From: Dictyostelium discoideum | Taxonomy: Eukaryota | Reading direction: 5' to 3' | Assembly: GCA_000004695.1 (NCBI GenBank) | Contig: CM000152.2 | Span: forward strand, 256,001 to 320,000 | DNA length: 64,000 nucleotides | Shown: one piece after another, positions 41,893 through 46,229 of the stretch | How the letters are laid out: each line of letters opens with the position of its first letter | How positions within the stretch are numbered: the first letter of the stretch is position 1 | Translations under genes and position numbers: made by a program | Notes under the pieces: model-generated | What the model was told of the DNA's origin: nothing | Databases searched by the model: none | Seen by the model: only the letters and a program-made list of their open reading frames with translations

Positions 41893-44800
41893 ATGAATGA
41901 AAGTAGAGAACAAGTAATTGAATCATTAGTTAAAAATATTTTAGAAAAAGCTTCTCAAGATGATTATAGTTATGATGAATGGTCATTATCAAAAAAACAA
42001 ATTAAAGAATTATGTGAACTTCAAACTCCAAATAATTTAAGATATGCAATTTGGAAGGTAAATATATATATATATATTTTATTATTTATATATTTTATAG
42101 ATTTATACTTACATTTTTATTTTTATTTTACACCAAAGCATATTGTACAACAAGGTGATCAAGGATTTATAGATAATAGATTAACATCATCAAATGATAG
42201 TAATAATAGTAATAATAATAATAATAATACATCTCCTACAAGTGGATTTAATTCAGAACCAATATTTCATAATGAAATGTTAAATAGGGATTGTTTACAA
42301 TTGTCACAAGATTATAATTTAATTAGTCAAATTAAATCATTCAATAATTCATCATCATCTTATTCATTCGATAGTTTTTCATCAATTAATAAAAGTAATA
42401 CAACCAGTCCAACTACAACAAGTTTATTAGATCAATCTTCAAATTCAAACCCTTCAATTATATTGGATACACCATTACAACCATTAAATGCATCACCAAT
42501 ATTAAGTGATTATGATAGTAATAATAGTAATAGTAATACAACATCATTAACCTCATCATCATCATTATCATCATCATCGACAACAACTAATTTTGAAGAT
42601 ATTAAAAAACTATCAACTGAATCAATTGCTGATAGATTATCTAGATTCATTAGATTCTTTTGTACAAAAACTAAAAGAGAGTATAGTATTGATGTTGCAA
42701 AATTAATGATACCATTTGTGGTTTTATCATTGGTTGAGGAGATCAATACATTGAAATTACAAAAATCATCATCATCATCATCATCAATTCCTTCAATCCT
42801 ACATCAAAATCCAACTGAAAATGATTGGATGTCTTTATCATTAAAATTAATTGAATCAATTTCAAATTCTGGAATTTATCCATATTCAACTGCAAATCCA
42901 ATTTTATTGTAAGTATAATAATATTAATAATAATAATAATGAATCAATATACTAATATTGATTTTTTTTTTGTATATCATAATTAGATGTGAGAGTGAAA
43001 TGTTTAGAATTTTATTATTATATCATGATCCAATATTATCACATTTTTTAAACCAAAGAACTGTAAATTCAATGCATTATTTTTATGAATGGGTATGTTT
43101 CTTTTGTATATAAATAATAATAATAATAATAATAATAAATTATTTATTAACTTTTATATATTTAGATTAATCATATGTTTTGTGGTTGTATTGATATTAA
43201 ATTTTTAATTCAAATTTGGGATTTATTTTTATATCATAATAATCAAGATTTTTATATTTATTTTGCATTGGCATTAATTATTTCAAAAAGAGAAGCAACT
43301 TTATCATTGACAAAAGGTACGTCAAAAGATATTTTACAATTATTGGAAGAGAAAAATATTGTAAATAGTTTATCAAATCAAATAAAGTTACCAGCTTTAG
43401 TAAAGAAAGCTGAACAATTAAGATCTTGTACACCATTAACTTTTATTAGAAATTGGAATAAGTTATTCACATATTGTAAACATCCAATCTCCCCAAAATT
43501 AGATCAAATTAAATTAATTTATTTAGAATATAAATATGCTGTTTGTATGAGTATTGATGTTGAAGAATTAATTTTAAATTCCAAACTTGATGGTTCACAT
43601 GTAAGTTTGTATATATATATATATATTTTTTTTTTAACTCGATATATATATTTTATTAATTTTAATTACTTTTTTTTTTTTTTAATAAAAAAAAAAAAAT
43701 AGAATGTTAAAGAGAAATTTTCATATTATTATCAAGATGATGAATTACAAGAATATCCAGATCATTTTTTCGTATTTGATTGTAGAATTTATAAATATTA
43801 TAAAGCTGGTAAATTCCCAGGTGCATTTCATTTACCACCAAGTTTATTAGTTACTCAACCTGATGAATTCACAAGAGTTATTCAATCATTCTCTGATATG
43901 AAAGGTTATACAAGATTTACATTTTATGATAATTGGCAACAATTTAATCAAACCTCTTTAAATAATGATGCTGATACAAATGAAAATGGTGATATGAATA
44001 TGAATATTCTAAAATTCTTAAAAGATGGTTTCCCTTATATTAGTAAAGTACCTTCTGGCTATAAAAGTATGTATAGAAAGATAAATATTTAAATATTAAT
44101 AAATTAATAAAAAAAAAAAGGTTGCTAATCTCTCGAGATCATTATATTTTATTTCCTTAGAAATTCATGATATATTCCTTTCAAAAGGATTAGAATTGGC
44201 AGTTCATTTTGCAGAGAATTGTCCAGTTTGTAATCCAAATGCATTCAATACATTACCACCACTATCACCAGTGGTTCCACAATCACCAACAATTGAACAA
44301 ACTCCAAAAGAGAAATGGCTTTCAAAGATAAGAAGTTTTAGACAATCAGCAAATCTTACCAATAACAATAATAATAATAATAATAATAATAATAATATGT
44401 CCACTACAAACACAACTACTACTACTAGTACAAATTCAACAATTTCAACTATAACAACACCAAATCCACCACTTCAACCTGAAACTAATGATTCAAGTTT
44501 AAAGAGTGCATTTAGTTTCTTTAAAGATAAATTAAAGATTAGAGATAAATCTTCAATTTATGATAATCAATCCGAATCAAATTCAATTAATAATAATTTT
44601 AATTCACCACAGATGGGTAGTGGTAATATGACTGCAACACCTTCAAAGAGTGAATCACCACATCATTCAAGTTTAACAATTGGTTCAAATAGAACTCCAT
44701 TAAGAAAATCACTGCAACAACAACAACAACCACCAAAATCTTCATTAATAGATTTAGATAATATAGATTCATCTGGTAATAATACTAGTATTTTAGATAG

Positions 44801-46229
44801 TAATAATGGTTTCGATAATGATATAATATCTCCAAGTGTTAGAGCTTTAAATAATAGTAATACCAATCTTAATAATAACTTTAATACTGACATATTATCT
44901 CCAAGTGTAAGAGGTTTAAATAATAGTGGTATTAATAATGCTAATACCAATACCAATAATAACAATAACAATAATAATAATAATAATAATAATAATAATA
45001 ACTTTAGTGCTGGTGTATTATCTCCAAGTGTTAGAGGTTTAAATAATAGTAGTAGTAATATTAATAATACAGCTACCAATATCAATAATGTAAATTCCAT
45101 TGATAAACCTGAATTAAATGTTAGTGGAAATAATGTAAAAGTTGTAGATAATAATAATAATAATAATAATAATAATAATAATAATAATAATAATAATAAT
45201 AATAATAATAATAATAATAATAATAATAATAATAATAATAATAATAATAATAATAATAATAATAATAATAATAATAATAATAATAATAATAATAATAATA
45301 ATAATAATAATAATATAAATAATAATAATGATAATATGATTTCTTTAACAAGTAGTACATCAAGTACAACAACTAATGGTAGTCAAAATAATAATAATAA
45401 TAATTTAATAACATCAATTTGGAATAATGGTACAACTAATAGTGCTAGTGGTAGTAAGATTAATTTAAGTTCATCATTTTATTTACCAAATCTTTCACCA
45501 TTTATAATGGATTTCGAAGAAGATGAAAATATAGCATTCGAAGAAGGAAAGAAATATTACTATTACATTGACGAAAAGAATTATCCAAAGGAAGCTGACG
45601 AGTTTATTTATGATCGTGAAAAGATTCAAAGGGAAGAAATCGATGCTGAAAATGAATTCAATAAAGAATATCAAGGTATTGAAGTTTGGTTAGATACTTG
45701 TAATTTTATGTTTGATTGTGTTGAACAAGAACAAAAACAATCACAATCACAATCACAATCACAATCACAATCACAATCACAATCACAATCTATTGATAAT
45801 AATGGCGCTTCAATTAATATAAACTCTTCTACAAGTTCAACTGTAACATCAACAACAACAACTACGACAACATCAACAACAACAACAACTCAACAAATAT
45901 CACAAAATAGATTTATAATTATAACAGATAAAGATATTATTACATTAAAAGAACATCCAATATTTAGTGGTTATGTTAAAGTTGATTATCAATATAATTT
46001 AAATGCAATTCAACGTATCTCTTATAAAAAGAGTAATCCAAACCTTTTAGAATTTAGTTTTGATAGAGATGAAATTAATAAAAATTCAAACGAACCTCCA
46101 AAAGATCAAATCATTGATAGTAGTGAAACTATTGAACCAAATAATAATACTTCTCAAGAAAATATATTTAAAAAATCTTATATTTTCGATGACATTTCAC
46201 CAATCTTAAAAACTATTAATAAAAACTAA
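41893..46229 (+). CDS. TBC-domain RabGAP with C-terminal rhodanese-like domain (TBC1D23-like), followed by a long Asn/Ser-rich low-complexity tail; about 6 exons
   Basis: E1 (41893 to ~42057) encodes MNESREQVIESLVKNILEKASQDDY...LRYAIWK then GTAAAT. E2 (~42134-42908) encodes HIVQQGDQGF.... E3 (~42987-43093) encodes CESEMFRILLLYHDPILSHFLNQRTVNSMHYFYEW then GTATGT. E4 (~43166-43600) encodes INHMFCGCIDIKFLIQIWDLFLYHNNQDFYIYFALALIISKREATL...LDGSH then GTAAGT, the TBC core. E5 (~43702-44067) encodes NVKEKFSYYYQDDELQEYPDHFFVFDCRIYKYYKAGKFPGAFHLPPSLL..., a rhodanese fold, then a GTATGT donor. E6 (~44161-46229) runs in frame after a tttccttag acceptor. The ORF-track 'M' at 44196 is a TTG. E6 contains (AAT)55, three SPSVRGLNNS repeats and (CAATCA)9. 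Confidence 0.7.
45150..45313 (+). repeat. Coding (AAT)~55 repeat encoding polyN in the TBC/rhodanese gene tail
   Basis: Perfect aat repeat over about 165 nt. Adjacent (CAATCA)9 at ~45745-45795 encodes (QS)n. Confidence 0.95.

Follow-up and report, generated by a model that had tools for sequence, protein, structure and literature searches.

Does the segment from 41893 to 46229 (+) of our window, a 64,000-nucleotide stretch of Dictyostelium discoideum DNA (contig CM000152.2 of assembly GCA_000004695.1, positions 256,001 to 320,000), encode an enzyme, as its TBC and rhodanese domains might suggest, or an adaptor of membrane traffic, and what is its long repetitive tail? A preliminary description had recognized a TBC Rab GTPase-activating protein (GAP) domain fused to a rhodanese domain, as in metazoan TBC1D23. 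According to our gene model, the segment is one six-exon gene of D. discoideum AX4 with a product of 1302 amino acids (aa). Very probably, D. discoideum has here its single orthologue of TBC1D23 (TBC-I), composed of an inactive TBC domain, an inactive rhodanese domain, a linker and a PH-like domain, and with a tethering role assigned by homology.

The orthology is much firmer because the last exon encodes the third of these domains. The tail had been described as mere decoration of a conserved trafficking factor; its repeats and Asn tract are there, but it ends in a conserved PH-like domain that was missed. The last ~190 residues are conserved in all dictyostelid sequences. When a profile of the dictyostelid C-termini was compared with PDB, only two entries appeared at E<=10, 6jm5 (E 4.8e-4) and 8qqf (8.9e-4), and both are the C-terminal domain of TBC1D23. 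The six-species profile was required for this result, as phmmer with the C-terminal 274 aa alone found no match in PDB. A protein search with the C-terminal alignment gave no match either; low-complexity words probably swamped the candidates.

The structural prediction points in the same direction. The AlphaFold 2 (AF2) model of the C-terminal domain has a mean predicted local distance difference test score (pLDDT) of 67, with core blocks at 81-91 and two low-complexity loops below 50. It comprises a helix, seven strands and a C-terminal helix, which is a PH-like fold. In a Foldseek search of PDB, the top four matches are TBC1D23 PH chains (E 4.1e-6 to 2.8e-5, template modelling score on the target 0.76-0.78). 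Other PH/PTB domains follow only from E 1.1e-2, so that the TBC1D23 chains score ~400- to 2,700-fold better, although sequence identity to the human PH domain is ~12%. A Pfam call of VPS13_C over the PH region (E 0.031, below the cut-off) was regarded as spurious.

In the human protein, the strand V626-F641, VVKITSKKKHPELITF, binds acidic TLY motifs of cargo tails, and its residues V626, K628, I629, K632-634 and I639 have been functionally tested (PMC11093223). This strand aligns with Dictyostelium IQRISYKKSNPNLLEF (I1230-F1245). I629, K632, K633, P636 and F641 are kept, K628 is replaced by R and I639 by L. By the alignment, the tested residues correspond to I1230, R1232, I1233, K1236, K1237, S1238 and L1243 in that order, with K672 unmapped. 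Both proteins thus present a K/R-I-x-x-K-K-x-x-P-x-L-Φ-x-F strand, and we regard the peptide-binding strand as recognisably kept in Dictyostelium on the basis of this alignment. Between strands 1 and 2, the PH-like domain carries a (SQ)n/Thr loop of ~60 aa. A perfect (ACAATC)9 array (45737-45790) encodes its (SQ)n part and is followed by an ACN-rich Thr run (45845-45889). D. firmibasis has a shorter loop, and the other dictyostelids have hardly any.

The N-terminal part leads to the same family. Pfam RabGAP-TBC (PF00566) matches the protein at E 6.6e-11, over the gathering score, and the PDB matches to the TBC domain are TBC1D23, TBC1D22A/B, Gyp1 and TBC1D17. The best of them, in agreement with the TBC1D23 architecture proposed earlier, is the human TBC1D23 N-terminal fragment 6jl7 (E 6.2e-17 with the single protein in phmmer; 5.8e-24 with the six-sequence dictyostelid profile). 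A single alignment with it covers aa 316-613, that is, the C-terminal lobe of the TBC domain together with the entire rhodanese domain. The TBC domain does occupy exons 2-4, where it had been placed, but it starts already in exon 1 with its RxxxW motif (R50..W54). The string proposed as rhodanese, FVFDCRIYKYYKAGKFPGAFHLP, was located at aa 515-537. Strands of this domain are FVFDCR (aa 515-520) and RFTFYDN(W) (aa 563-569). Pfam called Rhodanese in 5 of 8 aligned sequences (six dictyostelid ones plus the representative proteins P0006 and P0007), with a best E of 1.2e-4.

The domain order TBC, rhodanese, linker and PH-like is common to our protein and human TBC1D23 (6jl7; 6jm5/8qqf). The Dictyostelium protein is ~2x longer, 1302 aa against 681-698 aa in metazoan-like members (P0032, P0039). 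Its extras relative to human are the ~95-aa insertion in the TBC domain, a linker of ~410 instead of ~100 aa, and the ~60-aa insertion in the PH-like domain. Within dictyostelids, the spliced protein is 88% identical (BLASTP) to the 1184-aa D. firmibasis protein and four other proteins match it over their length; these five, of 846-1184 aa, align with the model end to end, a degree of agreement well beyond chance. Orthologues from D. firmibasis (RB653_004813), Tieghemostelium lacteum, Polysphondylium violaceum and Acytostelium subglobosum are collinear and 43-87% identical in full-length alignment. They share degenerate finger motifs (DC.Q and YS., see below), CPVCNP, the segment preceding the PH domain (pre-PH segment) and the PH-like domain itself. 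The length of the linker varies across dictyostelids from ~100 to ~410 aa. The D. firmibasis locus is syntenic: over gene and flanks the DNA is 75-88% identical, and a DUF829 gene lies upstream there too.

What, then, is the function of the linker? As noted before, the terminal exon holds a pure (AAT)55 tract and three near-identical SPSVRGLNNS-type repeats, the first of which reads SPSVRALNNS (Table 1). Asn and Ser make up 17% and 13% of the whole protein. The former claim that such decorations are unusual did not survive. The D. discoideum proteome contains nearly 10,000 homopolymer tracts (PMC9234386), those of Asn and Gln being the commonest (PMC9234386; PMC13093961), and three more long AAT/ATT runs lie within the same 64 kb, at 10410-10508 (33 units), 24388-24501 (38) and 49685-49759 (25). 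A shorter one lies at 58116-58154 (13), and the run at 10410-10508 sits within a long open reading frame (ORF), 10401-14651. The N55 tract is found only in D. discoideum: D. firmibasis reads VIDNNNLNNNDNDNDN at that place, and the other four dictyostelid orthologues have no poly-N there. As a microsatellite the tract is perfect, and AAT serves for 215 of the gene's 227 Asn codons, which fits recent slippage. N55 is thus most likely a species-specific and recent slippage product, ordinary for D. discoideum, and its expansion is probably neutral.

The SPSVR(G/A)LNNS copies lie in the same linker. Tandem Repeats Finder reports a 123-nt unit repeated 1.9 times over 44850-45081, and copies 2 and 3 belong to this tandem unit. 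Three copies are present only in the two group-4 species, and the motif is unrecognisable outside group 4. D. firmibasis keeps all three (SPSVKSLNNS, SPSVRGLDNS, SPSVRGLNSS), separated by N-rich spacers of differing length. We regard the copies as a duplicated short motif of the linker that may be under some constraint. It could be imagined that N55 and the repeats are functional modules, for instance a segment that behaves like a prion or forms condensates, or a docking motif present three times and regulated by phosphorylation. An S-P site in every motif copy and the persistence of three copies in D. firmibasis would agree with this, and the review literature leaves selection on Dictyostelium repeats open (PMC9234386). 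We nevertheless hold this explanation to be unlikely, given the restriction of N55 to one species, its slippage-like codon usage, the abundance of similar runs in the window and the lack of a recognisable motif beyond group 4.

Two islands of the linker are conserved among dictyostelids, KEKWLSKIRSF and LKSAFSFFKDKLKIRDKSS. The latter (aa 718-735, ~44472-44525) is basic and amphipathic and resembles a segment at a comparable place in metazoan-like TBC1D23, LLGKFSSVMKIKTKEMKQRF in P0064 and LITKFSSAIKVNSSKFKSRL in P0072.

The next question is whether the TBC domain and the rhodanese domain are catalytic. Active TBC Rab GAPs carry an Arg finger (IxxDxxR) and a Gln finger (YxQ). The preliminary description found neither of them obvious, and closer comparison bears it out. 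At the Arg-finger position the protein reads LNRDCLQ (42280-42300) with Q109; the surrounding EMLNRDCLQL aligns with human NTIHKDCLQF, which contains Q88, and the degenerate motif was found in 5 of 6 dictyostelid sequences. At the Gln-finger position it reads YSI (42682-42690) with I239, REYSI being aligned with human IKYST (T124) and with YVQ of TBC1D22A. A Ser/Thr/Asn-rich insertion of ~95 aa (~42349-42633) lies between the two motifs. In human TBC1D23, Q88 replaces the Arg of IxxDxxR, T124 replaces the Gln of YxQ, and no GAP activity was detected on a Rab panel (PMC7274447). Both proteins thus have Gln for the Arg finger within xxDCLQ and a replaced Gln finger within Y-S-x. The R-to-Q change within an identical DCLQ core is common to the two.

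As for the rhodanese domain, no cysteine is present in aa 560-628, and therefore there is no CX4-5R active-site loop, as would be expected of a catalytic rhodanese or Cdc25-type enzyme. The human rhodanese domain is inactive although a vestigial C399x5R405 is present (PMC7274447); the Dictyostelium domain has lost even this vestige.

When the dictyostelid profile of TBC-rhodanese was run exhaustively with HMMER, 1837 representative proteins matched at E<=1e-3, of which 63 reached E<=1e-30. Among the best 153 together with our protein, both canonical fingers are present in 89 and neither in 48. The finger-less group includes metazoan-like sequences and dictyostelids. The finger-intact group includes protist proteins such as P0006 and P0009-P0016, which are the next-best profile matches after dictyostelids (E 1e-93 to 1e-44), have the same TBC-rhodanese-PH layout, keep IxxDxxRT and YxQG, and may be active GAPs. 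Such a split fits the published description of TBC-I, in which R and/or Q are lacking in most, not all, supergroups and rhodanese occurs in amoebozoans, opisthokonts and excavates (PMC3655817, published in 2013); D. discoideum was included in the panel of that study. That an active Rab GAP, or an active rhodanese or Cdc25-type enzyme, is encoded here instead of an adaptor would have precedent in the 89 of 154 TBC-rhodanese proteins across eukaryotes with both fingers. With Q109 and I239 in their place, as in the inactive human protein, and with no cysteine for the CX4-5R loop, we consider it very improbable. The finger-intact protist proteins suggest an active GAP as the ancestor of TBC1D23-type proteins, with inactivation as a derived state common to amoebae and animals. 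The R-to-Q change in the shared DCLQ suggests further that inactivation is older than the split of amoebae and animals, though many protists keep the fingers.

Does the tail belong to the same gene at all? The gene starts with ATG at 41893 and ends with TAA at 46227-46229, the spliced frame of 3909 nucleotides (nt) containing no internal stops. All five introns are of GT-AG type, 73-102 nt long and 82-92% A+T. Downstream of the start codon, donors of GTA(A/T)(A/G)T type are each accompanied by a nearby AG acceptor that keeps the frame. G+C of the whole window is 22.9%, and the gene region is extremely A+T-rich. The N-terminus, MNESREQVIESLVK, is identical in D. firmibasis (P0001). In the five dictyostelid orthologues, conserved sequence continues uninterrupted across each of the five junctions, for example (slash marks the splice site) AIWK/HIVQ, NPILL/CESEMF, FYEW/INHMF and VPSGYK/KIHDIFLSK. 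Intron 1 keeps the frame and contains no stop codon, and for this reason the mechanical ORF 41893-42912 runs on through it; orthologues read AIWK/HIVQQ without the 27 additional residues. The read-through would add a hydrophobic stretch, VNIYIYILLFIYFIDLYLHFYFYFTPK, a trap for automated gene models.

Intron 5 is the disputed junction between the rhodanese exon and the tail. Its splicing joins GGC TAT AAA A/AA ATT CAT in frame, the acceptor ...tttccttag ending at 44160, and an in-frame TAA inside it (44091-44093) truncates the mechanical ORF. This intron, already proposed as GTATGT...tttccttag at 44067-44160, proved to recur at the same position and in the same phase in three other genomes. In genomic DNA it measures 94 nt in our window, 71 in D. 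firmibasis, 58 in T. lacteum and 70 in A. subglobosum. All four genomes have ...GGN TAT AAA A/GTATGT...TAG/AA ATT CAT GAT, i.e. the same Lys codon and phase 1, with unrelated intron sequences between conserved flanks VPSGYK and KIHD(I/L)FLSK. None of the lengths is divisible by three, and read-through therefore breaks the frame in all four genomes. The tail has its first in-frame ATG at M693; ahead of it and behind the acceptor, KIHDIFLSKGLELAVH, CPVCNP and KEKWLSKIRSF are conserved as protein. The conservation of the latter two upstream of M693 argues that this part is coding, and the position of all three that it is not encoded by any separate downstream gene. A pair of genes, namely a TBC-rhodanese gene ending at TAA 44091-44093 and an independent N-rich gene from an ATG beyond 44196, is suggested by the break in the mechanical ORF list at 44093 and by a tail ORF that is indeed listed from a TTG at 44196 and lacks ATG before M693, but it is hardly credible in the face of the shared intron 5, the conserved coding sequence ahead of M693 and a tail that ends in the very domain accompanying TBC-rhodanese in human TBC1D23.

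Several points weigh against the identification with TBC1D23 or its details. The gene model rests on comparative genomics. Of the Pfam checks proposed earlier, RabGAP-TBC succeeded; Rhodanese was not called in the protein itself at E<=1, nor was TBC1D23_C, and the latter family (PF19430) was found in one aligned sequence only (E 0.013). The Arg-finger segment is weak when aligned alone (7.5 bits) and depends on the shared DCLQ core. The AF2 model of the N-terminal TBC-rhodanese region, made for D. firmibasis P0001, reached a mean pLDDT of 44 and was not used for a fold search. Golgin contacts are conserved in part: in the alignment, human L278/Y281/Y282 correspond to K428/Q431/L432 and E425 to Pro, so that of these contacts Y426 and the hydrophobic positions I237/V239 alone persist. 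Finally, the FAM91A1-binding motif has no unambiguous place. In the human protein, FAM91A1 is bound by residues 518-538, with H519, D524, Y530, R531 and F537 being the key ones (PMC10636324). The pre-PH segment occupies the equivalent place, where metazoan-like members read YRNxAPVFSIDDE. The human motif is loosely recognisable there in two registers, either as Y1054-x6-F1061 with an acidic run behind it or as GKKYYYY..IDEK, and neither keeps all key residues. A profile of this segment did not retrieve the TBC1D23-FAM91A1 chimera from PDB and yielded chance matches only.

A possible mode of action of the Dictyostelium TBC1D23 can be drawn from human cells. There, the TBC-rhodanese platform attaches to golgin-97/245 at the trans-Golgi by way of their N-termini, FAM21 and acidic TLY motifs allow the PH domain to catch carriers that come from endosomes, and the linker binds FAM91A1 (PMC7274447; PMC10636324; PMC11093223). 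The structure of the gene, the identity of its domains, the missing catalytic residues and the conserved peptide-binding strand are documented above; every binding partner and cellular role proposed here would follow from homology with the human protein. We suggest that the protein is most likely a tether between golgin and vesicle, not an enzyme or RabGAP. The rhodanese domain would be packed behind the TBC domain, and the platform formed by both would attach to a golgin of the trans-Golgi. The PH-like domain, through short acidic/hydrophobic peptide motifs in cargo tails and/or through FAM21, would catch carriers that come from endosomes. The segment just upstream of this domain may recruit the FAM91/WDR11 complex. 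The linker between the two ends would have been stretched to ~410 residues by microsatellite-type expansion. Since all corresponding parts are present, a bridge of the same kind is the mechanism with the best support. The partner on the Golgi side is its least certain step, because the golgin interface is only partly conserved.

Another element shared with TBC1D23 follows directly after the rhodanese domain. It has the form H-x4-C-x2-C, and none of the six dictyostelid sequences deviates from its CPVCNP. Of 136 TBC-rhodanese proteins, 73 have H-x3-6-CxxC at a distance of 60-190 aa behind the D-x-R strand. Its carriers belong to very different lineages, both finger-intact and finger-less (e.g. 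P0032, P0039, P0026, P0048, P0017), and 106 of the 136 contain the D-C-R strand's Cys. The vertebrate-like representative P0032 reads HNPKSCIVC at ~aa 448-456, near the end of the crystallised human fragment 1-460; judged from P0032, the element would fall just past that fragment. In the TBC1D23 structure paper (PMC7274447), to which this search was limited, the word zinc occurs only within the name of the Golgi marker ZFPL1. It is conceivable, if doubtful, that the H-x4-C-x2-C element together with the D-C-R Cys forms a putative metal-binding or structural knuckle of the TBC-rhodanese family and, separately, that the three LSPSVRGLNNS copies form a putative lineage-specific regulatory docking motif in the linker.

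Table 1. Coordinates of the gene and its parts (positions in the window)
Feature	Position (strand)	Residues (aa)	Remarks
Exon 1	41893..42057 (+)	1-55	start codon; first TBC motif LRYAIW (R50, W54)
Intron 1	42058..42138 (+)		81 nt; GTAAAT..AAAG; 90% A+T
Exon 2	42139..42908 (+)	56-312	LNRDCLQ, ~95-aa insertion, YSI
Exon 3	42987..43092 (+)	312-347	TBC core CESEMFRILLLYHDP...YFYEW
Exon 4	43166..43600 (+)	348-492	C-terminal TBC helices; rhodanese start ~aa 471 (43535)
Exon 5	43703..44066 (+)	493-613 and first base of K614	rhodanese core
Intron 5	44067..44160 (+)		94 nt; GTATGT...TTCCTTAG; phase 1; Lys-614 codon split A/AA
Exon 6	44161..46229 (+)	614-1302	with TAA stop
HFAENCPVCNP	44205..44237 (+)	H629, C634, C637	H-x4-C-x2-C directly after rhodanese domain
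Linker	44238..45473 (+)	640-1051	~410 aa; low-complexity, presumably disordered
Repeat copy 1	44829..44858 (+)	837-846	SPSVRALNNS; D. firmibasis counterpart LSPSVKSLNNS
Repeat copy 2	44898..44927 (+)	860-869	SPSVRGLNNS
Repeat copy 3	45021..45050 (+)	901-910	SPSVRGLNNS
(AAT)55 microsatellite	45150..45314 (+)	N944-N998	pure, uninterrupted
Pre-PH segment	45474..45665 (+)	1052-1115	conserved aromatic/acidic: SFYLPNLSPFIMDFEEDEN..EEGKKYYYYIDEK..IYDREK
PH-like domain	45666..46226 (+)	1116-1302	interrupted by (SQ)n/Thr-rich loop ~45726-45905

The gene is flanked by the DUF829-family gene (40931-41542, +) upstream and by a small gene (46308-46797, -) downstream, and the order is the same in D. firmibasis. 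The 5' intergenic region (41543-41892) consists almost purely of T/A runs. Neighbouring single-exon ORFs in the window match the D. discoideum AX4 proteins DDB_G0278093, 6-phosphogluconate dehydrogenase, DDB_G0278103 and DDB_G0295725 exactly. The window yielded no tRNA genes and no Rfam matches.

Taken together, the gene is an ordinary TBC1D23 orthologue; its class has been described before, and its organism is a fully sequenced model. All three domains of the TBC1D23 tether, catalytic residues already lost, are hereby confirmed in Amoebozoa, which adds little beyond correct annotation. TBC1D23 is a human pontocerebellar hypoplasia gene, and Dictyostelium is an established model for trafficking by WASH, FAM21 and retromer. 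The locus can thus be used as a genetic handle, through a knockout or a tagged line.

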